Assembly: GCA_023247415.1 (NCBI GenBank)
Contig: JAHFGN010000001.1
Span: 10,062-74,061, forward strand
Source: Candidatus Omnitrophota bacterium
Lineage (GTDB): Bacteria > Omnitrophota > Gorgyraeia > 2-01-FULL-45-10 > JAHFGN01
DNA length: 64,000 bases
Direction: 5' to 3'
Of this stretch, positions 18,948 through 40,931 are shown one piece after another (the first letter of the stretch is position 1; each line of letters begins with the position of its first letter). The notes under the pieces are model-generated. The model had not been told where the DNA came from and made no database searches. It worked only from the letters and a program-made list of their open reading frames with translations. Position numbers and translations under genes: made by a program.

Positions 18948-18953
18948 TTGAAG

Positions 18954-25300: not shown

Positions 25301-28300
25301 TACGCCGGAATTTATGAATGCCCACAAAGCGGCTACAATTATAGCGGCTGAAAGGATGCTCAAGATACCAGGCCTTACGCTTGCCAAATCAGCCCACCCA
25401 TATCCCGGAGAGGCCGGTTGGAAAAGTGTGAGCCCTGCTGAAAGGAAAGAAGCCCTCAAGCAGGTCGCCAATGTTGCTGGCAATAGATGGCTCATCTTAA
25501 GCGCGGATGAGCCTTGGGAGACATTCCGTCTTAAAGTAGAAGAAGCGGCTATATATGGTCAGATGGCAGGCATACTTGTCGGCCGTTCTCCCATTAAGAA
25601 CATCACACAAAAGGTTACAATAGACGGCAAGAATATAGATATGCTTAAGCCGGATGACGCAGTCAAGGATATTCTACAAACCGAAGGCGTGGAGAAACTA
25701 TTGGAGCTTCTCGGCTATATCGATAACGCGCCGGCGAACGTATGGAGAGGCCTCGGCTTCGGCGATAATTTCCATCCGCAAGCGATAAAAGATCAACTCG
25801 ACTATGCCCGCTATTCAGGAAGCGGTTTCACGTATGTCTATACGCCGGAGGACTTAATCGGAGATCCTGATGTTGTGAAAGGGCCTGAACAGGGATATAG
25901 CTGGGCAGGATACGGCATCTCAGCCTTTTTTGGGCTGGCGAAAAGGTTAATAGCGGAGATATGGTACCACTCTGTGCAGAAAGACGGACTTTCCAAGGTT
26001 CCTGGCGCAACACACGACAAGCTTCGTGAAGATATCGAAGGCGAGAAATCCGTATTCGCCAAGATTATGGGAAAAGACGAAACCCAGCCGCAGGTGGTTC
26101 ATATAGGCTTTAATGAGAAGATAGGGCCGGGCGGCGAACAGAAGCAACTATTTGTAGATCTGTGCGTAAGAGAGCGCAGATTGGTGAAAAGGCTAAAGAG
26201 AGAGTTGGAGAAATATATACATACCGAAGCCGAATTCGTTCGGTATCAAAAGGCATACGCGGCGTGGGTCAGCAGGCAGAGCGCTATCGGAGTCAAGTGG
26301 ACAAACCCCGGACTGCCAGAGCTTCCTGAGTTTATGGCGGGATTCGACATGCCAATATTCGAGGCGATACAAAATGTCAGGGCAGAGATAGTGCGCTATT
26401 TTAATGAGATCGAATTAAAGCCCGGACAGTTTATCCGTTCCCCGGTTGGATTTATCCATTCCATAGTTGGCTCTTATCAGGGGCATCCCTTGAGCGGCAA
26501 AAAGGCAAAGAATGAGGCGTGGTATATCTTCTCAATCGGCAAAGACGCCGAAGGACATGACAGGCTGCTGTATTTCGAGCCGCAGCAAACATCGAATACA
26601 ACCTATAGTCCGCTCGATTTTCCTACTCCTATAGTCTGGAAGAATGGAGGGGCGGAGATGAGAAAAGATATAGGCGCGGGGATAGATAAGGATATAGATG
26701 AATTGCTGCAAGACGGAGATAGCACGCCGGCGAATGATGAAGACGCGGTCAAAGTAATCGCCGAGAGGGCATTCTACTATAGGCCGGCAAACCCGGATGA
26801 GTTCGTAGTAAATAGCTTCGAAAATGTCACGAGCGGCGGGTTATACGCGTATCCGAAAAACGCGCGGGCAGAGTCTTTGATAGAAGGGAAAAACGCGTAT
26901 CCGAATTGGCCGGAAGACCTATTTACGCTTCACAGAATTATCTTAGTAGGCGACAGCAAGAAAAAAGAGTATGCCTTAATAACAGTCAGGCCGCCGCCAG
27001 AAGCGTATAGGTTCGACGAATTCTTCGTCATAAAAGGCAAGGTGAAGGCCAGGATAGGCGGGCAATGGTATCCGCAAGTTCTCGCTCCAGGGGCTTCTAT
27101 CTTAGTGACTGATCCGCGCAGCCAAATCGAGATACGGGCCGAAGGCGAGGCCGAGGTCCTAAGGCTGTATCATACAAAGCAAGGGCCATCACCGCGTTTG
27201 GCAAAAGCAGGCGAGGCTGTGGGGACTTCGAAAGCAGCGGAGTGGGTGAAACTTATTAAAGATCCAAATTCTTCTGAAGGCATCCGTCGTAAAGCAGCCG
27301 ATGATTTGGGCCTAATCGAATCTGTCCCGGAAGAGGCTGTCACAAGCCTTATTGAAATGTTAGACAGCGAAGACAAAGGAGTTCTAAAATATGTGGTTAT
27401 GGCATTAGGAAACATCAGGGTAAAGCGCGTTGTCCAAGGGCTTGTAGATATGCTTTCTCAAGAGGATTTTGACATGGAGGTGCGAATAGAACTTATTATC
27501 GCGCTGGGAAAAATCGGCGAACGTATGAGTGATGATTCGCAAATAAGAGCGGCCCTGGAAAATATTCTGAAGAATTTAAGCCAGATAGACCTTAACCATG
27601 CCGCCCGGTACACTCTGACTAATATGGACGCCGCTAAAAAGATGGCCGAACTCCTTAAAGATCGTACCAGCGCAAATGGAACTGATCTTCAACAGGAGAC
27701 GGCTGAAGAAGACGTAGAGACTAAAGTTGCCGGATGGAACAAAATTGATGCAGACTCCTTGCTGGGGACTCTCGCCGCCATCAGGGTAAGAAATGGGCAA
27801 TTGCGAAAGGGCCCTATCCTCATAGCCTATGACACCGGATTAGAGGAATTCCCCACCGGCCATGTAGCTCAGGCAGCGGATGCCAAGATAAATGAATATC
27901 TGGATGGAGGGCTCGTCAGTGTTCGCGGCACAGGGGAGAAGCTGCTTGAGGCCATTAAAGAGGTTGTCGCGGCTAAAGGTTTGAATCCAAAAGATGTGGT
28001 AGTCATAGCCGGAGACAATACCGCGGAGGCAGCGCGTAAATTTGGGACTGTCATCCATGTCAAAAATACAGATGGCCAGTTCCTGCCCATAATAGAATTC
28101 TACAACCTCGCGTTGAAGATACTATACGGCCTCGGCGAAGATGAGATCCTGGAATCCCTCAAGCGTATAGGCGGGGCGGAGTCATTCACAACAGAAGATG
28201 TGCGAAAGCTGTTTAGCGCGGGAATCATCAGGATACTGCCGAAGACGTTCCCGATAAGACATGCGGATGCTGTCGAGGCGTACAGAGCTACTCGCCGCGC

Positions 28301-28316
28301 GTTAGAATCGTTGTAA
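22359..28316 (+). CDS. Giant-family protein (1985 aa): signal peptide, TLAP N-domain, phosphofructokinase-like domain, DeoC/LacD/DhnA-type class I aldolase-like domain, HEAT-like repeats, family C-module
   Basis: 'ATGGGDCAGLNPAIAAF', 'IIGGEDNMG' and 'EIMGRKAGWLALYAG' are PFK GGD/MGR motifs. 'VAIVALDQG' is LacD/DhnA-like. The C-terminus is 'IIRILPKTFPIRHADAVEAYRATRRALESL'. An AAGGAG RBS sits 8 nt upstream. Confidence 0.8.
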   Translation: MSKRAIAKIVSLLLIPSFFASDIAFAANIRDALAPYSGLELANGKDEENPVLAARQNKVRALVKAKMAESLARAMYGRLKKHNDISAEVIRQTVAADVKNWSVMRQAASGSSITVKRFRGADKEIDKGNTFVIATGGGDCAGLNPAIAAFIREMQKEGKNVLGVKEGYKGVASPEFLKKYAVLLENEDAGHIQGLASTVLASSRENPYEIDAAGELKDPNRIENCRKNLDGFAGFAIIGGEDNMGVAGQFSTDEKLPKQVAAIPKSIDNDVDTQMLGFHTAWTEARDIFYAPRLEGAMAQAEKEFDEIIERFVSTAVSADAHKKYNVTLAQGDQAKKAGAWLANFIHSANPNADPIFQRLPAPLKIHLLHLRDSIVVLTPDEPRSLKDIVATSYNIYKKKRTANVLLVDGFVFGKDEDGYTKEAIAKDHLLKALYEGQEPPYAPDFIEHKAHLVRRGMIYHLAKLPHANVKGGQDVRFSMVGRMDVSRSKYSVTEIMGRKAGWLALYAGSKYPKDFEELPIELQKAVEEKRAHVLILTPEKPATLKEIVDEAGRIWKDTGRCDILVAEGLSFSKDDEYLKKLLENNKVLNAYYDEQVVHPAYDSHGHPKLEGIGWFVRWAISHFLHEELAYIPEWKMSYELRGLAPDEYDTRLGEAFGRKAAELLLSGSSGKAVTLPDGLEPIYENIQVRPIADAVRQKNITTQVERGLLTEEELRRQGVFQNLRRAASGSANVERFKREREIIKNILKAQNISLPAGISAGEVLSMLEFADAKGHVAIVALDQGTLIQWVDPKADKKDPSQESIDKGTVVRLTIMYYLANGMRAKNRRVGFLLDKPALQAISNEGSEGARAAKLIARGTLPPDFMDVIKDMPLVAQIEEARGERGVAKGVYYTAKKRDGNFSVEEAVKLGSRLIKSNVFFYCGGELTEEEKEFNKKQWEFIGEVAKECREFGIGYVSELLYLVPPEMLTRHNTDEKSYRATPEFMNAHKAATIIAAERMLKIPGLTLAKSAHPYPGEAGWKSVSPAERKEALKQVANVAGNRWLILSADEPWETFRLKVEEAAIYGQMAGILVGRSPIKNITQKVTIDGKNIDMLKPDDAVKDILQTEGVEKLLELLGYIDNAPANVWRGLGFGDNFHPQAIKDQLDYARYSGSGFTYVYTPEDLIGDPDVVKGPEQGYSWAGYGISAFFGLAKRLIAEIWYHSVQKDGLSKVPGATHDKLREDIEGEKSVFAKIMGKDETQPQVVHIGFNEKIGPGGEQKQLFVDLCVRERRLVKRLKRELEKYIHTEAEFVRYQKAYAAWVSRQSAIGVKWTNPGLPELPEFMAGFDMPIFEAIQNVRAEIVRYFNEIELKPGQFIRSPVGFIHSIVGSYQGHPLSGKKAKNEAWYIFSIGKDAEGHDRLLYFEPQQTSNTTYSPLDFPTPIVWKNGGAEMRKDIGAGIDKDIDELLQDGDSTPANDEDAVKVIAERAFYYRPANPDEFVVNSFENVTSGGLYAYPKNARAESLIEGKNAYPNWPEDLFTLHRIILVGDSKKKEYALITVRPPPEAYRFDEFFVIKGKVKARIGGQWYPQVLAPGASILVTDPRSQIEIRAEGEAEVLRLYHTKQGPSPRLAKAGEAVGTSKAAEWVKLIKDPNSSEGIRRKAADDLGLIESVPEEAVTSLIEMLDSEDKGVLKYVVMALGNIRVKRVVQGLVDMLSQEDFDMEVRIELIIALGKIGERMSDDSQIRAALENILKNLSQIDLNHAARYTLTNMDAAKKMAELLKDRTSANGTDLQQETAEEDVETKVAGWNKIDADSLLGTLAAIRVRNGQLRKGPILIAYDTGLEEFPTGHVAQAADAKINEYLDGGLVSVRGTGEKLLEAIKEVVAAKGLNPKDVVVIAGDNTAEAARKFGTVIHVKNTDGQFLPIIEFYNLALKILYGLGEDEILESLKRIGGAESFTTEDVRKLFSAGIIRILPKTFPIRHADAVEAYRATRRALESL

Positions 28317-28328
28317 AAATGCCTAAAA

Positions 28329-31300
28329 ATGTCGAGAAATTTTAACAAATTTTGTGCTGCAGGGTGCCAACTTGTGGGACGTCCCCTTTTGGTCCTCGTA
28401 TTTCTCCTCAATGATCTGGGATTTGCCAGCGGCCACGATGCGCTGGCGCCTCACTATATCTCCGGGCTCCGCGAAGACGACGATAATGGCGCCGCGGTTC
28501 TTGACGCCCGCGCCAGCAGGGTCAAACAGGAGATGAGGGCGGCCGCATCGGGCGCGCTTGCCGAAAAGATACGCGCCAAATTACATGAGAAAAACATACC
28601 CGTAACCAGCGAAGAACTCGAGGAGATAGTCAGCGACAACGTCCGATCCGGCGGCCTGCGCCAGGCAGGGAGCGGTGAGTATACGCCGTCGCCGCAGGAA
28701 CTCGGGCTCATGGACAGCCTCGGCTTTGAGTTGGCTGATAAACAGGGCAGGGTCCGGTATAAGCGCGATTATAAACCGCCGGAGCTGGGTGTCGATCTCT
28801 GGTATATGACGCATGGCGCAACGGACGGAAATAAAGCGGCACTGCTTCAAGGGAGCCGTTCAGACGGAGAGCAAAGGTTTTATCTGAATGAGGAGGGGCA
28901 TAAACAGGCGAAAGAGGGCGCGGAGAAACTGTGGAATATTTTAGGCGTTCGCCTTATGACTGGCGAGAAGATCGTATTTTTGACAAGTCCGATAAGCCGC
29001 GCCCGCCAGACAGCAGATCATTTCATAAAGTTTGTCGAGATCAAAAGCGAGGGTAAGTTAAATATTGAATTAGTCCCTCTGGAAATACTTAAAGAGGTTG
29101 ACCATGGATTCTGGGATGGCAAGAAGAGAGAAGAGTTGCCGGAAGATGAGAAAATCCTGGCAGGGCAGAATTATGCAAGAAATGTCTTTGTAAAATCTCA
29201 AATTCTTCCGGGAGAAAACTTCCTCGAATTCATAAAACGTGTCCGCACCGCCGTCGAATTCATCAACCGCGAGTATAAAGGTAAGACGGTCATTATATTC
29301 GGACACGGTTTCTATTCAGCCGCAATCAAGATTGTCCTCAAGACCCAAGAGGTGGACCAAATAATCGCTGAAAAAGGATATATCGACTGGTCAAAACCTC
29401 TCCAACCCCATACTCACGAACGCTGCCAGCCGATCCATTTCGCTGCGACAGCAGGCGAGCGCAAGGCGACGAGCGGGGATGAGATTGAGCAATTTAAGCC
29501 AGTGGAATTGAGCCCGCAAAATATAGAGCGAGAAACGCCGCGGCAATTGGATGGCCTGCCAGCCAATACAGCGATGCTTCTTCGGGTCATACCGAAAACG
29601 CCCCAGGAAGCCCAGGAATGTAAAGATCTTGTCGAGCTCAATATCGGGCTAAGGCCCCTTATGACTTATGAAGGACTGTTAAAAATATACACTCAAGAGG
29701 CTCTCGCGCATAGGATCTCGAAGGGCGAAGGATCTCTGACAATATTGCTTCCCTTTAGACTTAAGGTCCCGGGCCTCAAAGGTCTCTCAGAGTTGAAGGC
29801 GGTATTAGGCATTGAAAAAACATGGGGAATGCTTCCAGATGAATTTCAATCGGACTTCAATCTTTTAGGAACAAGGAGAGATACAGTCGAAGTGCGAAGA
29901 AGATTGTTGACAGAGGCATTTAAACTACTTTCTGCCGGGGAGTTGCGCCTCGAAAATATAGCGGGATTTCCTATCGGCCTTCCAGAGAAAGCGGATAAAG
30001 AGTACTTCGCGAACGAGATGAAACTGGACCCGAATAGACTCTTCTCAGAGACTGAAGCGAATGAGATTTCAAGTCGGCTCGCAGCCGCAAAGGCCGAGCA
30101 GGAAGCTGAGAAATTACAAGAAAAACTGCAAAAAGAGCGAGATAGGGATGCCGCCCTGGCCGCTGCCAGGCTCGATCCAATTATTCAAAAGGCGAAGGCG
30201 GATCTAAACAGCATGCTCGATGAACTGGCCTCCTCTTCAGTCCCTCCGGCGCCGGATGAAGTGGAGGCCTTAAGAGGCGACATCGCTAAATTATCGGATG
30301 CCGAGCCGCTAGATAGAGGCAATTTTCAGCAGGCGGGCGCGAGCCTGAAAGGGCGCCCAGATGGTTTGCGTCGGAGGATCAAGAAGCTGGAAGAAAAATA
30401 TAGAGAAGAGCGAGAGATAACAGATTTGCTCTTGCGAATAATCTATTTAATAGACGCGAAAGATTGGCCAAAATTTTTGGCGCAGGATGTGCCGAACGCG
30501 TTCAGCTCTAATATTCTTGGGGAATATCCAAAGCTGAGCGATCGAACAGTCGAGCGCTTAAACCAGATAGTTCACTCTATCCATCAGGCGCTGCATTCTC
30601 AACACTTCGATGACCCAATAATTTATTCTACCTTAAGGACCATCCAGGCCATGATTGTGAACGCCTTAGCAGCCGCTGGAAGGATATCAGAGTCAGCGGC
30701 GCAAGTTTTCTGCGAAGACAACCTCTCAACTCAAGGCGATGTGTGGGTTCGCCAGAGAAATATTTGGTCAGAACGGCTTAAGCGAAGATTGGAAAGGGGT
30801 GGATTAGTCAAGGGCGGCCTTCCGCCTCCTCCTCCGCAGTCTATACTAAAGGCTATGGGGGCTAGAGGCAAGACGGGTGAGATAGCGTCCCGCTGCCTTG
30901 GGGTGTTTGACCTTCTCATTCTCTCAAGCAGGAGAGAGCAGTTCTCTGAGCCTGCGGCCCGGGATATCACTTTAGGGCCATTCACAGCTCTTTACTGCTC
31001 TATGCTCCGTATTGAAAAGGCTGACAATGGCGCGATTGCCGGTGTCTCCGACTATTTAAAATCGTTGTATCTACGCGTTGGCGAGGTGCCGGCAGATATA
31101 AAAAAGGGCGTCCTCTTAGGCAAGGCGGCCTATCTTGTTAATCTCGGGATGGTCGAGGTTTCGCTCGCCAGCATGGCGTCAGACCATTTCGGCGCTAAAG
31201 ACTTTGCGGCTGAATTTATGGATGTCGCCAGAGGGATATCCAAGTGGTTACCCAAAAAATACCCAGAATACAAGCCTTGGTATCCGCCGCTTCTGGCCGC

Positions 31301-32033
31301 GTATCTGAATGAGCCTGGCAGGCCCGCGCCTGAGGCGCAGGCTGGCGGCCAGACCGCGCCAACAACATCTGACCGAAAATCTACGAGCGGGATAAGGCAG
31401 GGCCTCGCCGCCGGTCCGGCAGTTCGCGCTGCAATGAGCGGAAGGGAAAAGAAAGAGGCGCGGGGGGCTAACATTCCCCAATCCCTAAGCGGCAAGATGG
31501 CTTTGCGCAAGACTCTCTTGACTTTGGTCTCTAAAGAATTGCAAAAAGGGCCTGTCGTGATAGCCACTGACACTGAACTTGTGCCAATTGAGATTGCCCA
31601 GATGGCTGAGAAGGTGACGAAGAGGTACTTAGGCGGCAGCGTGATGCATATAAGAGGCGCTGGTGAGAAGCTTCTTGAAGCTATCAGGGCCAAAGGCCTA
31701 AACCCGAAAGATGTTGTGATAATAGCCGGAGACAACACTGCGGGAGAGGCCCGAAAATTAGGGACTGTCATCCATGTCAAAAATCCGGAAGGAGAGTTCT
31801 TACCTATATTAATAGAGCTCTATGACCTCGCCCTGAAGATACTATATGGCCTGGGCGAGGAGAAGATATTGGAGTCTCTTAAGGGTATCAGCGCGGATAG
31901 ATGTGATGAGGCGGATGTGAAGAGGCTGCTCATTGAAGGCATAATCAGGATTCTGCCGAAGACAATTAAGATATCTGGCGCGGAGAAGCTAGAGGCGTAC
32001 AGCGCGACTCAAGCCGCCCTCCAATCGCTGTAA
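28329..32033 (+). CDS. Giant-family protein (about 1234 aa): TLAP N-domain, histidine-phosphatase (phosphoglycerate-mutase-like) domain, coiled coil, family C-module
   Basis: 'LWYMTHGATDGN' and 'VIIFGHGFYSAA' are branch-1 histidine-phosphatase motifs with a THG core. The C-module is about 70% identical to that of the preceding gene. The annotated 5' end is encoded by a REP element, so the true start is uncertain; an in-frame TTG lies before 'VLVFLLNDLGFASG'. Confidence 0.75.
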   Translation: MSRNFNKFCAAGCQLVGRPLLVLVFLLNDLGFASGHDALAPHYISGLREDDDNGAAVLDARASRVKQEMRAAASGALAEKIRAKLHEKNIPVTSEELEEIVSDNVRSGGLRQAGSGEYTPSPQELGLMDSLGFELADKQGRVRYKRDYKPPELGVDLWYMTHGATDGNKAALLQGSRSDGEQRFYLNEEGHKQAKEGAEKLWNILGVRLMTGEKIVFLTSPISRARQTADHFIKFVEIKSEGKLNIELVPLEILKEVDHGFWDGKKREELPEDEKILAGQNYARNVFVKSQILPGENFLEFIKRVRTAVEFINREYKGKTVIIFGHGFYSAAIKIVLKTQEVDQIIAEKGYIDWSKPLQPHTHERCQPIHFAATAGERKATSGDEIEQFKPVELSPQNIERETPRQLDGLPANTAMLLRVIPKTPQEAQECKDLVELNIGLRPLMTYEGLLKIYTQEALAHRISKGEGSLTILLPFRLKVPGLKGLSELKAVLGIEKTWGMLPDEFQSDFNLLGTRRDTVEVRRRLLTEAFKLLSAGELRLENIAGFPIGLPEKADKEYFANEMKLDPNRLFSETEANEISSRLAAAKAEQEAEKLQEKLQKERDRDAALAAARLDPIIQKAKADLNSMLDELASSSVPPAPDEVEALRGDIAKLSDAEPLDRGNFQQAGASLKGRPDGLRRRIKKLEEKYREEREITDLLLRIIYLIDAKDWPKFLAQDVPNAFSSNILGEYPKLSDRTVERLNQIVHSIHQALHSQHFDDPIIYSTLRTIQAMIVNALAAAGRISESAAQVFCEDNLSTQGDVWVRQRNIWSERLKRRLERGGLVKGGLPPPPPQSILKAMGARGKTGEIASRCLGVFDLLILSSRREQFSEPAARDITLGPFTALYCSMLRIEKADNGAIAGVSDYLKSLYLRVGEVPADIKKGVLLGKAAYLVNLGMVEVSLASMASDHFGAKDFAAEFMDVARGISKWLPKKYPEYKPWYPPLLAAYLNEPGRPAPEAQAGGQTAPTTSDRKSTSGIRQGLAAGPAVRAAMSGREKKEARGANIPQSLSGKMALRKTLLTLVSKELQKGPVVIATDTELVPIEIAQMAEKVTKRYLGGSVMHIRGAGEKLLEAIRAKGLNPKDVVIIAGDNTAGEARKLGTVIHVKNPEGEFLPILIELYDLALKILYGLGEEKILESLKGISADRCDEADVKRLLIEGIIRILPKTIKISGAEKLEAYSATQAALQSL
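28353..28390 (+). repeat. REP element copy (tgtgctgcagggtgccaacttgtgggacgtcccctttt)
   Basis: It is the same roughly 38-bp sequence as the two REPs flanking the RAYT gene. It contains the palindromes ctgcag and ggggacgtcccc. Confidence 0.75.
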
Positions 32034-32035
32034 AT

Positions 32036-32090
32036 TTTGTGCGGCAGGCACCCTGCCGCAGAGAGCAGGGTGCCTGCACACGGTTAAGAT
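32036..32090. repeat. Degenerate REP-like palindrome (possible REP pair/terminator)
   Basis: 'ttttgtgcggcaggcaccctgccgcagagagcagggtgcctgcacac' shares 'ttttgtgc.gcaggg.gcc' with the REP and folds as a long hairpin. Confidence 0.45.
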
Positions 32091-32113
32091 TGCAAAAATT
32101 TTGTTTTCGACCC

Positions 32114-32167
32114 TTGACAAGTGAAAGAATATCAGTATACTTATGTGGCTTTAAAATTAAAAAAATG
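32114..32167 (+). promoter_or_regulatory. Sigma70-type promoter (TTGACA-16-TATACT) plus conserved leader 'tATGTGGcTTtaaaaTTAAAAAAA' upstream of the 32216 giant gene
   Basis: -35 at 32114-32119 and -10 at 32136-32141. An AAGGAG RBS lies at about 32203-32208. Confidence 0.55.
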
Positions 32168-32215
32168 TTTACAAAGAATATGAGGAAGAAAAACAGCAAA
32201 CATAAGGAGAAGACC

Positions 32216-35200
32216 ATGGTCTCAGGCCGTAGATTATTTTTGAAGGTCATAGCATTAGCATTGGTTCCTACATTTATATCTTCCAGCATCACATTCGCCC
32301 AACCGATTCCGGATAACCGAAGCACGCTCGCTCCGGCATCGAGGACCGACGCCGTTGATGACAGCAACAGGGGTAGGGGGGATGTCCTCACCAATACCGT
32401 CGCGAAAAACTTCACTGATCAATGGTTTGAGGCATACGGCAGTAAGATTGCCAGAAAACTGTTCCTGGCATTGAGCCGGCCCGCAACGCCAGAAGTCGCC
32501 GAGGCTGTAGTCAAACACAATACTATAGGTATGGATGGCAAGACACAGCTTAGGTTCATCAACGCCGTAAAAGCGCGCATTGCGCCAACAACAACAGGCC
32601 TGCGCATGGCAGGGAGCGGAACCAGCCGCACTGCAACAAACGGCGAGACTGTCACGCCTCCGGGGAATATAAAACTGCTTGTTGCTCGAAATAAAGAGGC
32701 GATGGCGCGAGAGATGGCGGAGAGGATCGTGGTTAAAGTTCGTGAGGCAAACAGGGCGGGCCAACGGATGACGCTTGGTCTTGCAACAGGCGGCACGATG
32801 GAGCGCGTATATGAGCTCGTAGTTGAGATAACGAAAAACGAGAGACTCGACTGGTCTGGGGTCGTCACATTTAACCTCGATGAATATAAAGGTCTTTTGT
32901 CTACCCATAAACAGAGCTACAGGGCTTTCATGGATAAGCATCTATTCACCCCCCTCGTTCAATTTGGACTTAAGATTGAGGATACACATGTCTTTGACGG
33001 CACAGCGAGTGTTCCAGATGATGAGCTTCGTAAATTCCTTGGCATGATAAAACGACATGGCGGCGTAGACCTGCAGATCTTAGGCATCGGAAGCGACGGC
33101 CACTATGCATTCCACGAACCAGCAGTGGTAGTGGATGATGCCATGGCGAGCGCTATTTATAACGGTGAGCTCTCTCCAGAACAGACCGAAAAGGTTGGCG
33201 GATTCAACGAATTCATCATAACAGGTAAAGATCTTGCAGCGAAAAGCAATGCGATACAACGTGTAATACATGCCAAGTCAGTTTGGCTGACAGCGCTGGA
33301 GAGTAATGAAAGTATTCTCGCCAAAGTTAAAGAAGCGTGGACAAAGGAGAAAAGAGAGGTAAATGAAGCGGATATAAGAGGACAGCTGCGGCAGTTAGGC
33401 AAAAAACTGCTTCTTGGACAAACTCTTCATTTCTACATCGACGGATTGGATAAGGAAGCAAAGAAAAATCTTCTTTCTCACATAAGCTCGGACGAATTGT
33501 ACCGTATGTCATACGTGGGGAGAGTCGAATTGCATGATGCAAAAGAGTTCTTTGACAGCAAAGCAAAGGTCGTTGACCTTGCCCTCTCCACTATAATAGA
33601 CAATTCGCGGTACTTCCCGAGCCTGCTCGATGTGCCGACCCAGGCCTATACGCTGACAGGCGTTGTAAGAGAGGCAAAAGAGATATTGCTGGCCGCAAGC
33701 GGAGAAAACAAGGCCGAGGCAATAGCCGGCGCGCTCGGCAAGACCATATCACAGGAGGTCACATCGAGCATCCTGCAGACCCACCCAAATACGACCTTTA
33801 TCATCGCTGAAGACGCGCTCACCAAGGTGCCGTCCGAGGTAGTGACGAAAGCCGATAAAAATCGTGTCTTCGCCTCAGCCGCCCGCTCCGCGCTGAGCGG
33901 ATATACGCGAGAGGACGCGAAGCGAGAGGTGCCGGTAGCATTTGCCGAGCATCGCGCTTTTTGTATTGGGGAGCCGATAGTTGAGAATGAGTTGGGGATG
34001 TATATCCCGAGCTTTAATAAATGGACAGAATCTGATGTGAAGGCGTTTGAAGAGACGCTCAAAGATCTGCCCAATCTTGAAGGTATAGGTATAGACGGCG
34101 ATGGGAAGGCTGCTCTTACTATCAAGAAGGAGAAGTTTATATCCGACAGCCAGGTCCTGACCGGATTGATCAAATTTTTGTTTGACTGGGCCCAAAAGAG
34201 GGAAGAACGGGAAAAGAGCGAAGCGGTTTCGAATAACGAGGTGCTCGCGGCGTTTAAAGATCTGGTAAATTCGATCGCGCTTATAAGGACGAGCATCGGC
34301 TCGATGGCAAAGCCCGAGATAGAAGAAGATTCCGCCGCCAAACGATATGTCCTCGTCCTGGACGATACGCAGGCGCCTGCTACTGTGGACCAGCTCAAGA
34401 AAGAGGCCCGCCTGACAGCCATGTTCACAGGCATTGAGCCTCCTATACATTATGAATACGGCAGGGGTACTCCATGGGTAGGATTTACAGGATCGCATGC
34501 GGGCGCGGCGTCAATCTACACCAGCGTCGCGAGAACGAAGCAGTATGTTAAATTGATCGAGGAAGCGGTAAGGGACGGCCACAGCCAATATGCAGAATTG
34601 TTAAAGATGGCCTTTATCCAGTCGCTTAGCGGCAATATGGAAGCGAAAAACAAGATAGTTGAAACTATCATCGTCGCGGAACATGAAAATGATAATAAAA
34701 AAGCGCTTGAGAAGATAAAGGCGGAGGATAAGGACCGCTTCACCGAGACATTCGTATCCGTGGACCTGTCCAGGGCGCTTGGCCAACTCGCGCAGATACC
34801 GGAAGCGATCGCCAAGTCAGCCGAAAATTATCTCCTCACAGCGATTGACAAAGGCGAGATAAATGATTTTGTCGTAAAGAGATTTGGAGAGCTCCTGATA
34901 TTCGACGTGACGCATAACAATCCTATATACGACATCCACCTTCGGGCTCAAGAGATTATAGCCGCATCCATCAGAGAGGCGTTTGCTGAAGTGATAAGGC
35001 TTGGCTATTACAAGATTGAGCAAGAAAAGATAGATTTCACCAAGGCCAGCCTTCAGGAATTGGCGAAGGCGCTTGACTGGAATACGGATGAAATAAGATA
35101 TACGAAAGGACAGAGTAATAAACGAAAGTCCCAGCCCACCATGCGCCAGTTCATATTCGGCGCTGACGAGCGCGCGTTCAACAGTATCCTGTTCAACCTC

Positions 35201-38104
35201 TATGGTTCACCGAATATTACGACTATGCAGGCTATTGAAGGAAGCGCGGGCATCTATTTCAAGAATCAGAAGGTGGCTGACCTGCGCCGGGATTCATTTA
35301 CGCGGCTTGTAAGAGGAGAGGCGCTTGACACTACAGGAAGGAACGAGATCGCCCAGCATCTTCCGCGAGAGCTGTTTAAATTGGTAAACCTCAATAAAGG
35401 TCCGGACCCTGATTTTGGATCGGATTCAGGGTATGCGACCAAGGCCATCTACTCCGGTAAAGAGTCGCGTTTCCCGCAAGATGAGCCGATGGTAGTCGTC
35501 ATGAATCTGGGCAAGGTGCAGGTCGCTGTATACCAATCGCAGGCCGGCGCTGAGGCTGTGGGCGGAATCCTCGGGGTGGGCGTTAAAGAACAGAGCGTTG
35601 ATGGTCTGGGAGGCGACCGGCAGGACTTGCGTCCCGTTACATGGGAAGAGGCCGCTTCTCAAACGTTGGATTCGCTAAAGGGGCGAAAGATCGCGCCCAC
35701 CACATTCACCGCGAGCCAGATGAACCGCGGAAGATTCGGCGAGGTGATCGATCCTGTTAAGGAGAGCCCGGAGTTTCGCGTAAGAAATCTCGCCAGGAAG
35801 GTGAAGGGCGAAATAGATTTTGAGGAAGTTTACAGGGCGCACTGGCCGATCCAGCCGGGCACCAATGCCGTCACAGCGGAGGATATATCGGCAAAGGCGT
35901 GGAATGAACTGAAGGAACAGGGCAGCGCCGAAGAAGATGTTGTTTCAATCATTTACGGCAAGCTCAAGAAAGAAAAGCGCGTCAAGATGATAAGGCGCTG
36001 GAAAGACGCCAGCGAGAACCGCGAGGAATTCACCATGAGCGTGTTCAAGGCCGATATAGGCAGTTCCCTTGGCCATACGATCCCGCCAAAGCTCCTCATG
36101 ACCCTGATAAGGGCGTATCTGGAATACGCGAAGGCCAAGGGCTGGATACAGGATTACCTTGTTCAAAAAGAGCTTCCCATGTTCAGGGTTGGAGACGATA
36201 TAGAGATAGTCATATCGCACAAGAAAGGCATTGAGGACAGCGATATACACAGGCTCGCGGTCCGCGCCTTCTACTTCGCGCTCTACTTCGCCGATGCCGC
36301 GAAACGCGACGAATATTACGGGTTTGGGCAGGACCTGCCGCTCGATGTCGACTACTTCCTGGCCTTTGCCAAGATCTATACGGGCGAGGATCAGCAGAAT
36401 ACGGAAAGTTTCGTAGTAGATAAAAGCATAACATCTTTAATGGAAGACTATGTCAAACCCAGAGTGGAAGCATTGTCGCGGGAAGACAGGTATACTATCA
36501 CACAAGCTGAAATCAGCGCCGTATATAACCATTTCAATAACGCATATATGGAATTAAAAACAGACGTATATCAGTCCAAGAAAGAGACTAAGATCGCGGC
36601 TGGGGCAACCGGCAACGTCAGCGGTTCCGGTATAGGTTTCGCTGAGCTAAGCCGCGCTAAGCTCGCGCCGGGCAGGTCCTACACATTCTTCGCGTTCGAC
36701 AAGGCCAGCCCAGGCGCATTCTCCTTACCTTATTATGAGGCTGCCTTGGTCGCTTTGAGGGCCGGAGATTATGATAACCTCAGCTTTGAGGTGGAAGTTG
36801 TGAAGCCGCTTGATAAGCATGAAATTGGGCAGAAGATTATGCTCATAGATGTCGCGGAACAGCCGGAGCTTCTAAAAAATGTCCTTTCTTCAGTGAACGA
36901 CTTCCAGATAAAGGCTGTATGGACAAAGGACCGGGATGGTTCATTCAGGATGGTAGCCGCGAATTCCACGGAACGGCTATATCAGTCTGAGAAGGCTCAT
37001 GGCGCGTATCTTGGCAAGGACGACCCAGCCGCCATGATGGAACAGGCATTCGCGAACCGCGTCATCGAATGGATGGCCGCGAATCCTTATATAATTCAGG
37101 GTGACGAGCGTGGATCTCATATGGCGTTTGTCCTGCTCACATCAGCAACACAGTCCTCCCCCGGCACATTCAGCATACCTGTGGCTGTGGCTGTCTCCTT
37201 TACGCTGGGGCTGAACGGGGAGCTTAGAGATATAATAGACGTATTCGGAGCCCCCAAGTTTGAATTGCCCATGGCTAAAGCTGTGGCGGCCAATGAGCTT
37301 TATATCGAAAGGCATGGTAATAACGCGAATCGCGGCGAGATAGGGCTAATCGAAGAGTCATATCCCGGCCGCAGGCTGCACAGGAAGATACTCAAAGACG
37401 CTAACCCCGCTCTTTCTATAGGCGAGATCATGGCCGAACGCGGCCGTCAGGCAGCGAGCGGCGGGGCCAACGAAGCCGTCGCCGGCGGCTGGCTGTATGA
37501 TAAGGTTACTGTTCCTGATGCTGAAAATTTAGGTGATACCCTGCGCGTTATCAAGGCCTCCAGCGTGTTGAATAAGGAAACGGACAATCGCGTGCTGATC
37601 CTGGCCCTGCCCAATGAGGTGGTGCCAAGCGATATGGCGGTGAAGTTTGGACAATTGGCGGATCGCTATCTTGGAACAGGCGCGGTCCAGATTATCCGCG
37701 CGAACCAGGATTCGCTCTACGGAAAAGCCGTCTCAATAGCGGGACAGGTAAAGCAAGCCGGGAAAGAGGCCATAGTCGTATCTATGGTAAGCGCCGGAGC
37801 CGGCGAAAGCGTTGTCAATGACCTGGCGAGGTTAGGCAAGGTCATGAAGATAGCGGATGGAAGCTTTGTCTCTCCGGGCTTCGTGGACCTGGCCCTTCGA
37901 ATAGCGTATGGCACGCAGGGAGAGGTCCTCGCTTGCCTGAACAGGATAGCGACTCATGAGAAGGGGTTGGCGTTCAGCGAAGAGGATATCGCGCGTGTCT
38001 TCAAGGGCCTTGTGATCATACTGCCGAGAGCAGGTTCAGTTGACCTCAAGACAGCCCGGGAAGCCTACACCGCGGCGAAAAAGTACATCGATACATCGCT
38101 GTAA
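32216..38104 (+). CDS. Giant-family protein (about 1962 aa): signal peptide, TLAP N-domain, glucosamine-6-phosphate deaminase (NagB)-like domain, family C-module
   Basis: ATG 32216 is preceded by AAGGAG. The leader is 'MVSGRRLFLKVIALALVPTFISSSITFAQP...STLAPASR'. 'LGLATGGT...VVTFNLDEYKGL...ILGIGSDGHYAFHEP' matches NagB catalytic motifs. The ORF-track start at 32039 lies in a palindromic repeat upstream of the promoter. Confidence 0.75.
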   Translation: MVSGRRLFLKVIALALVPTFISSSITFAQPIPDNRSTLAPASRTDAVDDSNRGRGDVLTNTVAKNFTDQWFEAYGSKIARKLFLALSRPATPEVAEAVVKHNTIGMDGKTQLRFINAVKARIAPTTTGLRMAGSGTSRTATNGETVTPPGNIKLLVARNKEAMAREMAERIVVKVREANRAGQRMTLGLATGGTMERVYELVVEITKNERLDWSGVVTFNLDEYKGLLSTHKQSYRAFMDKHLFTPLVQFGLKIEDTHVFDGTASVPDDELRKFLGMIKRHGGVDLQILGIGSDGHYAFHEPAVVVDDAMASAIYNGELSPEQTEKVGGFNEFIITGKDLAAKSNAIQRVIHAKSVWLTALESNESILAKVKEAWTKEKREVNEADIRGQLRQLGKKLLLGQTLHFYIDGLDKEAKKNLLSHISSDELYRMSYVGRVELHDAKEFFDSKAKVVDLALSTIIDNSRYFPSLLDVPTQAYTLTGVVREAKEILLAASGENKAEAIAGALGKTISQEVTSSILQTHPNTTFIIAEDALTKVPSEVVTKADKNRVFASAARSALSGYTREDAKREVPVAFAEHRAFCIGEPIVENELGMYIPSFNKWTESDVKAFEETLKDLPNLEGIGIDGDGKAALTIKKEKFISDSQVLTGLIKFLFDWAQKREEREKSEAVSNNEVLAAFKDLVNSIALIRTSIGSMAKPEIEEDSAAKRYVLVLDDTQAPATVDQLKKEARLTAMFTGIEPPIHYEYGRGTPWVGFTGSHAGAASIYTSVARTKQYVKLIEEAVRDGHSQYAELLKMAFIQSLSGNMEAKNKIVETIIVAEHENDNKKALEKIKAEDKDRFTETFVSVDLSRALGQLAQIPEAIAKSAENYLLTAIDKGEINDFVVKRFGELLIFDVTHNNPIYDIHLRAQEIIAASIREAFAEVIRLGYYKIEQEKIDFTKASLQELAKALDWNTDEIRYTKGQSNKRKSQPTMRQFIFGADERAFNSILFNLYGSPNITTMQAIEGSAGIYFKNQKVADLRRDSFTRLVRGEALDTTGRNEIAQHLPRELFKLVNLNKGPDPDFGSDSGYATKAIYSGKESRFPQDEPMVVVMNLGKVQVAVYQSQAGAEAVGGILGVGVKEQSVDGLGGDRQDLRPVTWEEAASQTLDSLKGRKIAPTTFTASQMNRGRFGEVIDPVKESPEFRVRNLARKVKGEIDFEEVYRAHWPIQPGTNAVTAEDISAKAWNELKEQGSAEEDVVSIIYGKLKKEKRVKMIRRWKDASENREEFTMSVFKADIGSSLGHTIPPKLLMTLIRAYLEYAKAKGWIQDYLVQKELPMFRVGDDIEIVISHKKGIEDSDIHRLAVRAFYFALYFADAAKRDEYYGFGQDLPLDVDYFLAFAKIYTGEDQQNTESFVVDKSITSLMEDYVKPRVEALSREDRYTITQAEISAVYNHFNNAYMELKTDVYQSKKETKIAAGATGNVSGSGIGFAELSRAKLAPGRSYTFFAFDKASPGAFSLPYYEAALVALRAGDYDNLSFEVEVVKPLDKHEIGQKIMLIDVAEQPELLKNVLSSVNDFQIKAVWTKDRDGSFRMVAANSTERLYQSEKAHGAYLGKDDPAAMMEQAFANRVIEWMAANPYIIQGDERGSHMAFVLLTSATQSSPGTFSIPVAVAVSFTLGLNGELRDIIDVFGAPKFELPMAKAVAANELYIERHGNNANRGEIGLIEESYPGRRLHRKILKDANPALSIGEIMAERGRQAASGGANEAVAGGWLYDKVTVPDAENLGDTLRVIKASSVLNKETDNRVLILALPNEVVPSDMAVKFGQLADRYLGTGAVQIIRANQDSLYGKAVSIAGQVKQAGKEAIVVSMVSAGAGESVVNDLARLGKVMKIADGSFVSPGFVDLALRIAYGTQGEVLACLNRIATHEKGLAFSEEDIARVFKGLVIILPRAGSVDLKTAREAYTAAKKYIDTSL

Positions 38105-38159: not shown

Positions 38160-40931
38160 ATGAAAATACAACATCCAAAACATATGCAAAAGACGATATC
38201 GATATTGTTGATACTGACATTCCTTCCCTATAATCTAGCATTTGCGCTCGCGCCGTCTTATGTCTCCAGGCCTTTCGGCAAAGAGGACCCGCGGAGCGCC
38301 AAGCAGGCCGAGATATTAGCGACGGCAAAGAAGGCTCTGGCAGTCAAGATGGAGCGGCGTTTGTACGAGCTGCAGAAAAAGACCGCGCCTCAAGATTATC
38401 TGCCCGCGGGACTTCGTCTGGCCGCAAGCGGCGGCTCGAATGGCGGGAATGTCGCAGGGCCGTTTACGCTGAAGGAAGCGAAAGAAGCAATCAATGTCAT
38501 AAATGTTGTTAAGAGTAGGACTGCAGCCGCGCCCCGCGGCTCGAAGGCAGGCGGCGCTCCAGGTTCTGCTAAGGCTGGCGTTTCGCCTGAAGAGGCATTG
38601 AAGGCGATGGCAGATGAGTATCTGGACCGATTTAGGCAATATATGTTAACTCTCCACCCCGTCACTCGTAACATACTTATAAAAAAGAGAACGGCGATGA
38701 TAAGACAGGCCTTGAAATGCGCAAACGATGATCCAAGGGATGCGCTTACACTACTGCAAAATAGTTTGAGCGAATGTGAAATGTGGGAAAAGCTGCGAGA
38801 GGTTTCGCTGATGCAAACAGAAAGAAAAGAAGTAGAGGCCTCTATCCGGGAGATGGCAGCGCAGAATGAGGCAGCTGGAGACCAGACCGCAGTTACAATC
38901 CTCGGCGAAGACGGCAAGGCCATAACTGGTCAGAACAGGCAGGCCCAGGCCGGCCGCGACGCGAGGGGCGGCGGAACGCCTGAAGCGGCGACTGGGTCTA
39001 ATATCGTGCTCCTACAATACCCGTCCAAGCCGACACTGGATGCATATTTTGATGCCCGTTCTGGAGGCGATGGAGAAACATTGAAAAAGGCGAGGGACAA
39101 GGCGGCAAAACAGGCAGTTGCCGCAACATCTAAATTGGATCCAACAGGCAGGCAAGCTCTGTCATTAGTATTGAATCTTATGGAGCAGAGAGGGTGGGAC
39201 GTCAATCAGGACCGCCGTGAATTCGAAGCGCTAAGCAGTAGAATTGACTATTGGACCAATAAGTTTTCGCCTAAGTCTCAACAAGCAAAAAAGATTGTCC
39301 CCGCTAATAGAAGAGAGCTGATAAAAGCAGCCAAAGATAGCGGGTTTCCTGATAATATCAGGCAGGATTTTGAGCGCAAGCAGCGTGGTATACAGCTTCT
39401 ACAGGTGAGGCAATTGAGGGATGGTGAGGTCGTGTTGATATATTCTACCGGATATCCAGTGATGGAGAATATGGCAAGTGGTAGTTTCACGACTATTTGC
39501 TACACACTGCTTCATTCAGATGGAAAATATCATATGCTTCCGGTCAGCTATCACAATACCAGCAAAGGGCTGGAGGCATCCATAGACTTAGATGATGTGG
39601 TGGAGGGTATTAAATATCGCGATCTCATAATAAGGAGCAGGTTGTTGGCCGGCACAGAAGAGCCGTTATTATGGAAAGCGCTTGGGAGTGCGGCCGATAT
39701 AGTTGATATGGCTGTCAGACAAAATGTTCAATTAGGTGAATCGCCATCCCCTGAAATAGTCCGCGGCTCAAAGGCCGGCATTGCCGCGCTGCCTGCCGCG
39801 CCGGTCGTCTCGCCGGCAGGGAGATTCGCGGATGGATACAAGACCTGGGGGGAGGTGCCGGGGATAAATGTATTTACCTTCTATCCGCGGGAAGGGGAGA
39901 GAGTTTATGTCATGTTCTTGAGCGACGCTGAAAGGAATGACCCTACTCTCCCCTCGCATGGCAGAGCGGATTTCAGTAACGGCCAGTTCGCGGCATATGT
40001 GATGCAAAAAGACATCGTGCATTCGGCTCAAAGAGTACCGATGCCTGAGGTTTGCAATAAAGTTATCGCGTTCCTAAAAAATGCGACAACAGGAAGCAAA
40101 GACTTATATGCGCGCAGGACAGTAGAACATGAATATGTAATAGGTTCAACGAAAATTGGGGAGATCGCGGCCATCTTCGCTGAAAAAGGAAAGATAACCG
40201 TAACCTTCGGCGATAGACAGGAGGAATTCTCCGACACTGCCGCCGCAGCCCAGGTTCGCGAGGCCAATAGCGGAATCGCGGAGCGCAATATCGCTGTGGA
40301 TTGGAGAAGCTATCACGAAGCCCGGGCGGCTGAATTCAGATCCGGGCTTATTCGCACGTTGACTGAACATCCTGATAAAGAATTTGTCCTGGCTGTTGAT
40401 ACTGACATCGGAGGCGCGCATAAGGCTCAAATCATGCCGATATGGAATGCGTTCGATGATATCAGAAAGCTCGCCTACAAAGACGGCAAGCCGCTATTTC
40501 CGAATCTGTCAATAATAAGGGGGGCCGGCCTCACCCTCGCGTCGAAGATAGCTAGAGCCAGAAACGAGAAGAGTGTTGACTTAGGCAGTATCTTCGTCGT
40601 CGCCAAAAAGGCCAATGTTGACAATAGGGCCTTTGAGCCGCTTACAGGGGCGTGGATAGCCGCGATAGACGATTCAGCGGCCGGCGAAGGCGTCTACATG
40701 CCTGTATTTGAGGCCGCGACAATCACGATGATGGCCGCGCTGAATGTCGATTCGGCCGCCATCAAGACGTTCTGCGACTCTATAACCGACAAGCCGATAG
40801 ACCCTAAAGCCATAGACGAATTTAAACGCGGCAGGATCCTGTATCTGATGCCGAGGGCAGCGAGATTCGACACAGAAAAAGCCCTCCGCGACGTCTACGA
40901 ACTCGCGAGGATTACGTATACAGCGGCGTAA
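38160..40931 (+). CDS. Giant-family protein (923 aa) with family leader and C-module but no recognisable enzyme domain
   Basis: The leader is 'MQKTISILLILTFLPYNLAFALAPSYVSRP'. The C-terminus 'RILYLMPRAARFDTEKALRDVYELARITYTAA' matches the family C-module signature. Confidence 0.65.
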   Translation: MKIQHPKHMQKTISILLILTFLPYNLAFALAPSYVSRPFGKEDPRSAKQAEILATAKKALAVKMERRLYELQKKTAPQDYLPAGLRLAASGGSNGGNVAGPFTLKEAKEAINVINVVKSRTAAAPRGSKAGGAPGSAKAGVSPEEALKAMADEYLDRFRQYMLTLHPVTRNILIKKRTAMIRQALKCANDDPRDALTLLQNSLSECEMWEKLREVSLMQTERKEVEASIREMAAQNEAAGDQTAVTILGEDGKAITGQNRQAQAGRDARGGGTPEAATGSNIVLLQYPSKPTLDAYFDARSGGDGETLKKARDKAAKQAVAATSKLDPTGRQALSLVLNLMEQRGWDVNQDRREFEALSSRIDYWTNKFSPKSQQAKKIVPANRRELIKAAKDSGFPDNIRQDFERKQRGIQLLQVRQLRDGEVVLIYSTGYPVMENMASGSFTTICYTLLHSDGKYHMLPVSYHNTSKGLEASIDLDDVVEGIKYRDLIIRSRLLAGTEEPLLWKALGSAADIVDMAVRQNVQLGESPSPEIVRGSKAGIAALPAAPVVSPAGRFADGYKTWGEVPGINVFTFYPREGERVYVMFLSDAERNDPTLPSHGRADFSNGQFAAYVMQKDIVHSAQRVPMPEVCNKVIAFLKNATTGSKDLYARRTVEHEYVIGSTKIGEIAAIFAEKGKITVTFGDRQEEFSDTAAAAQVREANSGIAERNIAVDWRSYHEARAAEFRSGLIRTLTEHPDKEFVLAVDTDIGGAHKAQIMPIWNAFDDIRKLAYKDGKPLFPNLSIIRGAGLTLASKIARARNEKSVDLGSIFVVAKKANVDNRAFEPLTGAWIAAIDDSAAGEGVYMPVFEAATITMMAALNVDSAAIKTFCDSITDKPIDPKAIDEFKRGRILYLMPRAARFDTEKALRDVYELARITYTAA

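Follow-up and report, generated by a model that had tools for sequence, protein, structure and literature searches.

The closest described counterparts of the proteins reported here are the giant 'Archaeovorins' of the Omnitrophota, in which TIM, PGI, fructose-1,6-bisphosphatase (FBPase), PGM and aldolase domains were found, together with the puzzle of where such proteins are localised, and whose cleavage points were stated to be unknown (West-Roberts et al. 2023, 10.1101/2023.11.21.568195). A 2026 preprint (10.64898/2026.06.07.730766) reported 'multi-enzyme metabolic clusters', along with a Pfam module of sugar metabolism to which starch synthase, PGM and ROK belong. Because both preprints describe enzyme domains in long Omnitrophota proteins, the general phenomenon is already known. 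Here we analysed a 64,000-nucleotide stretch of a Candidatus Omnitrophota bacterium genome (assembly GCA_023247415.1, contig JAHFGN010000001.1, positions 10,062 to 74,061 of the forward strand; hereafter the window), in which seven long + strand genes, named A to G, share only a leader module of ~100 residues and a C-terminal module (C-module) of ~200 residues. Our subject is gene E. As judged from its sequence, its 1962-residue modular product probably carries, as its first cargo unit, a catalytically competent glucosamine-6-phosphate (GlcN6P) deaminase, NagB.

The proteins of both preprints and the family described here apparently come from the same phylum and have signal peptides and embedded TIM, PGI, FBPase, PGM/PMM, starch-synthase, ROK and HEAT domains in common. 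They differ in size and topology: the published proteins have 10,000 to at least 147,000 residues and many transmembrane helices, whereas the members of our family have 1,000–4,000 residues and one N-terminal hydrophobic segment. Protein E, with its single hydrophobic segment, does not fit the Archaeovorins, which have tens of thousands of residues and many transmembrane helices. Term searches of both preprints and of the literature that we searched did not find a leader/C-module family of this size, a NagB with an insertion, a NagB-FBPase pairing or the inter-unit motif described below, and literature searches on Omnitrophota polyproteins and on V. archaeovorus returned nothing specific to the family.

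The NagB call itself is routine annotation, with the twist that a conserved insertion lies next to the active-site lid and that the enzyme is fused to a class V FBPase. Its context matters more. With 1,000–4,000 residues and clear unit boundaries, the family is a compact and tractable entry to the question posed by the preprints, namely why Omnitrophota house cytosolic-type sugar-phosphate enzymes in long, exported-looking proteins. It offers three handles on this question: an uncurated C-module found in at least 257 clusters, a conserved leader, and a lineage-specific inter-unit motif.

Gene E and the order of its units

An earlier sequence-only reading of the window had placed a NagB domain at 32650–33450 in a protein of ~1960 residues. 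The three peptide strings that it quoted were all found in the translated + strand open reading frame 32039–38104, and its size estimate agrees with the 1962 residues obtained from the ATG at 32216. This ATG is most likely the start of the gene; we preferred it over the TTG at 32114 because of the Shine-Dalgarno sequence AAGGAG at 32204–32209. The TTG was called as the start in the database copy P0001, which is 100% identical, has 1996 residues and is found on three independent assemblies, one of them a 194-kb contig. This alternative start falls inside a promoter-like site. All residue numbers of protein E below are counted from the Met at 32216. The features of the gene are as follows.

32114–32141, + strand: sigma-70-like promoter candidate TTGACA-16-TATACT, 11/12 positions, by consensus match only
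32204–32209, + strand: Shine-Dalgarno sequence AAGGAG, 6 nt before the ATG, read directly from the sequence
32216–38104 including the stop codon, + strand: coding sequence of the multi-enzyme protein E, 1962 aa, start ATG 32216
32216–32305, + strand: signal-peptide-like leader with a basic n-region, a ~15-aa hydrophobic stretch and TFA/Q
32603–32644, + strand: linker motifs RMAGSG (aa 130–135) and RTATNG (aa 138–143), closing the leader module
32654–33127, + strand: N-terminal half of NagB, aa 147–304, with TGGT at aa 191, DEY at aa 222–224 and SDGHYAFHEP at aa 293–302
33128–33550, + strand: ~140-aa insertion in NagB, aa 305–445, a predicted folded alpha/beta subdomain
33551–33835, + strand: C-terminal half of NagB, aa 446–540, with NSR at aa 463–465 (Arg172 equivalent) and GENK at aa 499 (Lys208 equivalent)
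33884–33901, + strand: linker motif RSALSG (aa 557–562), directly 3' of the NagB unit
33902–34720, + strand: segment of ~270 aa without family assignment, aa 563–835, from ~aa 656 homologous only to P0038
34721–35914, + strand: tentative degenerate copy of the class V FBPase fold, aa 836–1233, by weak collinear similarity
36029–36346, + strand: class V fructose-1,6-bisphosphate (FBP) aldolase/phosphatase, N-terminal part, aa 1272–1377, with KADIG, GH, VGDDI and GQDL
36347–36604, + strand: 86-aa insertion within the FBPase domain, aa 1378–1463
36605–37318, + strand: class V FBP aldolase/phosphatase, C-terminal part, aa 1464–1701, with FDKASPGAF, Y-L-G-K-D-D-P and RGSH
37445–37462, + strand: linker motif RQAASG (aa 1744–1749), just before the C-module
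37493–38101, + strand: family C-module, aa 1760–1962, a predicted five-stranded parallel alpha/beta/alpha domain

Protein E would thus read, from its N-terminus, as a leader, a NagB split by a subdomain of ~140 residues, a stretch of ~270 residues, a probable degenerate FBPase copy, an intact class V FBPase and a C-module of ~200 residues. Upstream of the gene, between the stop codon of gene D (32033) and the promoter-like site, lies a perfect 13-bp GC-rich inverted repeat at 32044–32077 (GCAGGCACCCTGC / GCAGGGTGCCTGC) with an 8-nt loop and no T-run after it.

A NagB domain in two halves

Profile, sequence and structure searches together confirm that window 32654–33835 (aa 147–540) encodes a putative glucosamine-6-phosphate deaminase domain of NagB type. 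A hidden Markov model search with Pfam PF01182 (Glucosamine_iso), the check that the sequence-only reading had proposed, gave a significant match at aa 159–298 (E=3.2e-16, 60.3 bits against a gathering cut-off of 27), which covers only positions 2–143 of the 225 in the model because of the insertion. Searching all PDB sequences with phmmer, we found the human, Borrelia, Pasteurella, Vibrio, B. subtilis and E. coli NagB enzymes at E=1e-25 to 1e-31, each matching in two collinear stretches, aa 147–304 and aa 446–540. BLASTP against E. coli NagB gave 34% identity over the N-terminal half and a second high-scoring segment pair over the C-terminal part. Among NCBIfam models, the top match was TIGR00502 nagB (177.9 bits, E=2.2e-52), ahead of agaI (galactosamine-6-phosphate isomerase, 87 bits) and pgl (6-phosphogluconolactonase, 46 bits).

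The predicted fold agrees with this assignment. An AlphaFold2 model of aa 140–565, built from a 7-sequence alignment, reached a predicted local distance difference test (pLDDT) score of 76 and a predicted template-modelling score of 0.74. When it was searched with Foldseek, the top 20 PDB matches were all NagB (among them 3hn6, 1ne7, 7lqm, 2bkv and 1dea, E ~1e-12 to 1e-14), and the template-modelling score against solved NagB structures, normalised to the target, was 0.71–0.78 (~0.75).

The residues expected of a deaminase are also in place. We aligned E. coli NagB with six insertion-bearing sequences, protein E and five relatives (alignment A2). The human NagB alignment from the PDB search independently shows the same motifs. 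The columns equivalent to Asp72, Asp141, His143 and Glu148 are invariant (D83/E84/Y85, D155, H157 and E162/P163), as are the phosphate-binding columns T52/G53/G54 of the TGGT loop, N324/S325/R326 (Arg172) and K360 (Lys208). In protein E, the Asp of DEY corresponds to E. coli Asp72, and SDGHYAFHEP holds the equivalents of Asp141, His143 and Glu148, so that the two catalytic residues named in the sequence-only reading, Asp in DEY and His in DGH, stand in invariant columns. The E. coli motif, quoted there as GVGVDGH, we take to be GVGNDGH.

The domain does not have the range given in that reading but extends from 32654 to 33835. Because the domain is split by the insertion at 33128–33550, the range ending at 33450 left out the C-terminal third of NagB with the NSR (Arg172) and Lys208 motifs. 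Compared with NagB as known (PF01182, TIGR00502; 1dea of E. coli, 1ne7 of human, 2bkv of B. subtilis), the fold and the catalytic and phosphate-binding residues are alike. The domain of protein E differs in having a conserved, folded insertion of ~140 residues after DGHxAFxEP and in sitting within a 1962-residue protein, whereas NagB is a free enzyme of ~240–270 residues, and the allosteric-site and C-terminal-extension region of hexameric NagB is not alignable in it.

This NagB had been called the second, well-conserved one, and protein A indeed contains, at nt ~1524–2213, a NagB-like domain that has diverged further, with GEGENAH and without TGGT. Its best NCBIfam match is NF002557, the 'deaminase-like' NagB-LmbE fusion family. 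Protein A fits the known NagB-like and LmbE/PIG-L fusions in that a NagB-like domain is followed by PIG-L in the same motif-bounded unit; the NagB of protein E, in contrast, has canonical catalytic motifs and no adjacent deacetylase.

The insertion and the proteins that carry it

The insertion follows directly after DGHYAFHEP and is modelled with pLDDT 82–95. In alignment A2 it takes the place of the segment around E. coli NagB residues ~151–158, and the domain stops before the C-terminal extension. The position is presumably that of the segment leading into the active-site lid and the allosteric site of the E. coli structure, and altered regulation or oligomerisation of NagB by the insertion is plausible. 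The insertion had no Pfam match and no PDB sequence match, and a profile of it searched against the PDB gave noise only.

A word-indexed protein search found five relatives of the insertion-bearing NagB. All five keep the insertion, and the insertion-bearing sequences are 34–57% identical. No relative was found when JGI metagenome contigs were scanned with the insertion alignment. A scan of genome contigs with the NagB alignment yielded, among the matches listed, only ordinary NagB genes of ~240 residues from many phyla (best identity 48%) and none from Omnitrophota. With five relatives from the word-indexed search and none from the JGI scan, the insertion-bearing NagB appears to be rare.

Three of the six insertion-bearing proteins combine NagB with an FBPase, which is of class V in protein E and of the non-homologous GlpX class in P0002 (NagB then GlpX) and P0003 (GlpX and NagB). 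Alanine dehydrogenase domains co-occur with the insertion-bearing NagB in 3/6 proteins, namely P0003, P0005 and P0006. The sequence-level pairing of NagB with alanine dehydrogenase suggests a possible coupling of NH4+ release and capture, with a hand-over of ammonium. Tandem clusters of such long genes are also present around P0002 and P0003.

The remainder of protein E

The ~1500 residues beyond NagB had been described as having no recognisable function. This view stands for aa 563–835, which remain without assignment, and fails for the rest, which holds a class V FBPase, its probable degenerate copy and the C-module. Pfam PF01950 (FBPase_3) matches with E=3.5e-46 (158.5 bits against a cut-off of 25), and in the alignment to 3t2b the motifs KADIG, GH, VGDDI, GQDL, FDK, Y-L-G-K-D-D-P and RGSH are all conserved; the Y229F variant 3t2g aligns exactly at the Tyr of Y-L-G-K-D-D-P. 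We take Tyr229 and the Schiff-base Lys232, as well as the metal- and phosphate-binding roles of the motifs, to be as in the 2011 structures. By these motifs, aa 1272–1701 is a predicted class V fructose-1,6-bisphosphate aldolase/phosphatase with an intact residue set. The Schiff-base Lys, the Tyr and the metal/phosphate motifs are like those of the enzymes from Thermoproteus neutrophilus (3t2b) and Sulfolobus tokodaii (3r1m/1umg), while the unit of protein E differs in its 86-aa insertion, its upstream probable degenerate duplicate and its fusion to NagB, leader and C-module.

Similarity between aa ~836–1233 and the FBPase is weak: blastp gave E=0.016 at the N-terminal motif, phmmer found a stretch shared with the counterpart in P0038 at i-E=0.0026, and hhalign gave a collinear alignment to class V FBPase with E=4.7e-4 over 353 columns at no more than 33% probability. 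As this region has other residues in place of the catalytic ones, we treat aa 836–1233 as a tentative degenerate duplicate upstream of the intact enzyme. The same arrangement, a degenerate copy and an intact FBPase, is found in P0038. Searches of the middle region (aa 555–1271) by PDB phmmer, Pfam and NCBIfam gave no match, and the word-indexed protein search returned nothing, not even protein E itself; its sole homologue, P0038, came from a local search of family members.

Leader and C-terminal module

The sequence-only reading had also attributed a family leader and a C-module to protein E, and both are common to the neighbouring long proteins. The leader provides the only strongly hydrophobic segment in protein E and its long paralogues. 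Across the paralogues it consists of a basic n-region, ~13–15 hydrophobic residues including Pro, and a small-residue c-region (TFA/Q, AFA/A, ALA/E), after which a T/A-L-A-P motif is present in protein E and the family. It lies at 32216–32335 in gene E and at the N-termini of the genes at 18954, 22359, 28329, 38160 and 41038, and its h-region (…LIPTF..SN..FA) is unusually conserved across the family. A Tat signal, considered for the GRRLFLK of the protein E leader, was rejected as a family feature, as the twin arginine occurs in no paralogue.

Proteins C, D, E, F and G show the C-module most clearly, while in A and B it has diverged further. Neither Pfam nor NCBIfam has a model for it, and the word-indexed protein search returned 3 fragments only. 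An exhaustive profile search of 1.84 billion representative proteins gave 257 clusters at E<=1e-3, P0001 scoring 213.5 bits over its aa 1794–1996. In all 150 matches listed, the module lies at, or at most ~20 residues from, the C-terminus of proteins of up to 3815 residues. Most full-length members have the same kind of leader, and those bearing organism names come from Candidatus Omnitrophota/Omnitrophica. In 23 long members the cargo consists mainly of sugar-phosphate enzymes, with PGM/PMM in 9/23, followed by GPI, FBPase_3, TIM, GAPDH, PFK, IMPase, ROK, GlpX, UDPGP, PIG-L and CofD in the Pfam tally. An AlphaFold2 model from 34 sequences (pLDDT 86.6) predicts a five-stranded parallel alpha/beta/alpha sandwich, for which no specific PDB relative was found.

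A common leader, a common extreme C-terminal module and highly variable cargo in between recall, by analogy only, the proteins with a type IX secretion C-terminal domain. The C-module differs from that domain in being a ~200-aa alpha/beta/alpha sandwich instead of a beta-sandwich, and the cargo here is made up of cytosolic-type metabolic enzymes. Within the window, no secretion machinery linked to the C-module was found. The leader would most likely direct the protein to the membrane by the Sec/SRP route, and the C-module would most likely serve docking, oligomerisation or sorting throughout the family.

A motif between the units

A short motif, typically R-x-A-A-S-G, recurs between the units of the seven long proteins. 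With the pattern [RK]-x-[AST]-[AGSTLMN]-[SN]-G, we counted 24 occurrences, against ~1 expected from shuffles and 0 in the 7016 residues of the ordinary proteins of the window, a statistic that is no more than indicative, as the proteins counted had been inspected before the pattern was set. The motifs of protein E, at aa 130, 138, 557 and 1744, divide it into the leader, the NagB unit, a unit of aa 563–835 with the degenerate FBPase and the class V FBPase, and the C-module; the remaining six long proteins hold the other 20 sites. In P0038, as in protein E, motifs flank the FBPase unit. Relatives bear the motif out independently: P0003 has R-x-S-A-S-G after the leader and then between its GlpX, FTHFS, NagB, alanine dehydrogenase and C-module units, P0002 has R-A-S-[AS]-S-G at equivalent places, including both flanks of NagB, and P0004 and P0005 have the variants A-[AS]-S-L-G and K-S-A-A-P-G-M.

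These motifs may be candidate processing sites or conserved linkers; in either case they would mark unit boundaries. One explanation of them is that protein E is a precursor polyprotein, from which a lineage-specific protease acting at R-x-A-A-S-G linkers would free NagB, the FBPase unit and the C-module, the giant protein being only a vehicle for translation and targeting. We regard this as possible, with the balance leaning against it. As an account of how the protein acts, it does not conflict with a competent NagB as the first cargo unit. In its favour are the enrichment over shuffled and ordinary sequences, the shared bounding of the FBPase unit, and the fact that the motif brackets every Pfam-recognised unit in P0003, P0002 and P0004 in lineage-specific forms (RxSASG, RASSSG, AASLG, KSAAPGM). 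In addition, pLDDT is low just after the upstream motifs and at RSALSG in the NagB model, as expected of exposed linkers. Against it, our analysis identified no such protease, the pattern was fitted to the proteins in which it was counted, an R-x-A-A-S-G-type motif is missing from the more distant C-module proteins examined, and conserved linkers can serve other ends such as flexibility or modification. If cleavage does take place, the motif supplies candidates for the cleavage points that West-Roberts et al. call missing, and these can be checked in existing metaproteomes.

A broader version of this idea, which we consider rather unlikely, would make the family the punctuated metabolic polyproteins of one Omnitrophota lineage. 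Sugar-phosphate enzyme cassettes (NagB, FBPase, PFK, GAPDH/PGK/TIM, PGM, PGI and others) would stand between a targeting leader and a docking/sorting C-module and would be separated by a co-evolving protease at R-x-S/A-A-S-G sites specific to each lineage. This would yield a glycolytic/gluconeogenic assembly that is either tethered to the membrane or exported and that might be passed on to a host or prey cell.

Proposed function and competing explanations

In the alignments, the NagB and the FBPase of protein E both keep their full catalytic residue sets. The shared product of the two enzyme families is fructose-6-phosphate (F6P), which NagB forms from GlcN6P (GlcN6P + H2O <-> F6P + NH4+) and the class V enzyme from triose phosphates or FBP. 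Protein E may therefore be a module of the F6P node, into which amino-sugar carbon would enter through NagB, running in the catabolic direction, and triose-phosphate carbon through the FBPase. The catabolic direction is favoured because glmS is present in 174/176 Omnitrophota genomes (10.64898/2026.06.07.730766); an anabolic role, from F6P to GlcN6P in place of GlmS, is disfavoured by the same count. Protein E would work beside paralogues with PFK, GAPDH/PGK/TIM, a mutase-like phosphatase, a ROK kinase and deacetylase, and a glycogen-synthase-like domain. The occurrence of NagB beside two non-homologous FBPase classes and alanine dehydrogenase leads to testable hypotheses on the coupling of F6P and ammonium.

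As to location, the enzymes of protein E could face the cytoplasm or be exported, and we hold the two to be about equally probable. The leader resembles a cleavable Sec signal, and DeepTMHMM surveys assign the majority of long Omnitrophota proteins to the membrane or the space beyond it (10.64898/2026.06.07.730766).

Several observations weigh against a competent NagB at an F6P node. The NagB domain scores under the equivalog cut-off of TIGR00502 (177.9 against 236.9 bits) and the FBPase below that of NCBIfam NF041126 FBP_aldo_phos (153 against 520); since both are under their cut-offs and have large insertions, the specificity or regulation of either may be altered. In the AlphaFold2 model, confidence is low for the catalytic loop GSDGH as well as for the last NagB strand and helix. 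A signal-peptide-like leader is hard to square with the dependence of the enzymes on phosphosugars and, for those of the paralogues, on ATP and NAD. Finally, the direction of NagB and the logic of the F6P node are drawn from the co-occurrence of domains in only six proteins.

The score under the nagB cut-off could also mean that the domain is a NagB/Pgl superfamily member of another activity, such as a 6-phosphogluconolactonase, a galactosamine-6-phosphate isomerase or another amino-sugar-phosphate deaminase, with the insertion reshaping the lid and the pocket. The insertion immediately precedes the segment that, as we take it, forms the active-site lid in E. coli NagB, and the NagB-like domain of protein A plainly belongs to the divergent 'deaminase-like' type. 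We nevertheless consider such an activity unlikely: nagB models score 3–4 times as high as pgl and about twice as high as agaI, the equivalents of Asp72, Asp141, His143 and Glu148 are all kept together with TGGT, Arg172 and Lys208, and D-G-H-x-A-F-x-E-P is NagB-like and unlike what we assume to be the lactonase motif.

Even less probable, in our view, is that the enzyme-like domains are non-catalytic and serve in a secreted surface protein as modules for sugar-phosphate binding or for structure/adhesion. This would agree with the cell-surface reading of Omnitrophota giant proteins, with the signal-peptide-like leader and with published topology predictions, by which the majority of long proteins in Omnitrophota lie outside or in the membrane (10.64898/2026.06.07.730766), and the degenerate FBPase-like copy in protein E indicates that such domains can decay. 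That copy, however, shows what loss looks like, and the NagB and class V FBPase domains are unlike it: the full catalytic sets are retained in NagB across six sequences of 34–57% identity and in the FBPase, which speaks for selection acting on catalysis. We rejected both chance similarity and a pseudogene in view of the intact reading frame, the identical protein in three assemblies and the strong family E-values. A catalytically competent NagB in the first cargo unit of protein E thus remains our preferred explanation.

Paralogues and genomic setting

The other six long genes of the window and their C-modules are the following.

3–9332, + strand: paralogue A, >3056 aa, NagB-like, PIG-L and ROK domains and a related C-terminal module, continuing past the window start
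18948–22124, + strand: paralogue B, 1058 aa, leader, starch-synthase-like Glyco_transf_5 and C-terminal module
22359–28316, + strand: paralogue C, 1985 aa, leader, PFK, HEAT repeats and C-module
28329–32033, + strand: paralogue D, 1234 aa, leader, His_Phos_1 (phosphoglycerate-mutase-like) and C-module
38160–40931, + strand: paralogue F, 923 aa, leader and C-module, cargo without recognisable domain
41038–47352, + strand: paralogue G, 2104 aa, leader, GAPDH-like, PGK and TIM domains and C-module
27705–28313, 31422–32030, 40320–40928 and 46741–47349, + strand: C-modules of paralogues

Paralogue A has no upstream in-frame stop within the window, and its ROK kinase, PIG-L deacetylase and NagB-like deaminase form a complete-looking amino-sugar entry set. 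In paralogue G, a GAPDH-like region, matched weakly and in its C-terminal domain alone, lies together with PGK (E=7e-69) and TIM (E=1.5e-21) in one motif-bounded block, a triple fusion of consecutive glycolytic steps.

The neighbouring genes are chromosomal housekeeping genes (ilvD/B/C, leuA, aroE, aroC, topA, dprA, xerC-like, waaA and alr), and because of these ordinary surroundings we do not regard the long-gene cluster as a mobile island. Two genes for membrane peptidases are found near the cluster, one for an Rce1-like CPBP intramembrane protease at 12361–13443, between long genes A and B, and one for a type IV prepilin (A24) peptidase at 55534–56343. Directly after long gene A, at 10076–10861, lies an AbiEii-type nucleotidyltransferase toxin gene (type IV toxin-antitoxin / abortive infection), and a single open reading frame at 10864–12237 encodes both a complete TatD-type hydrolase and a radical SAM domain, fused to each other.

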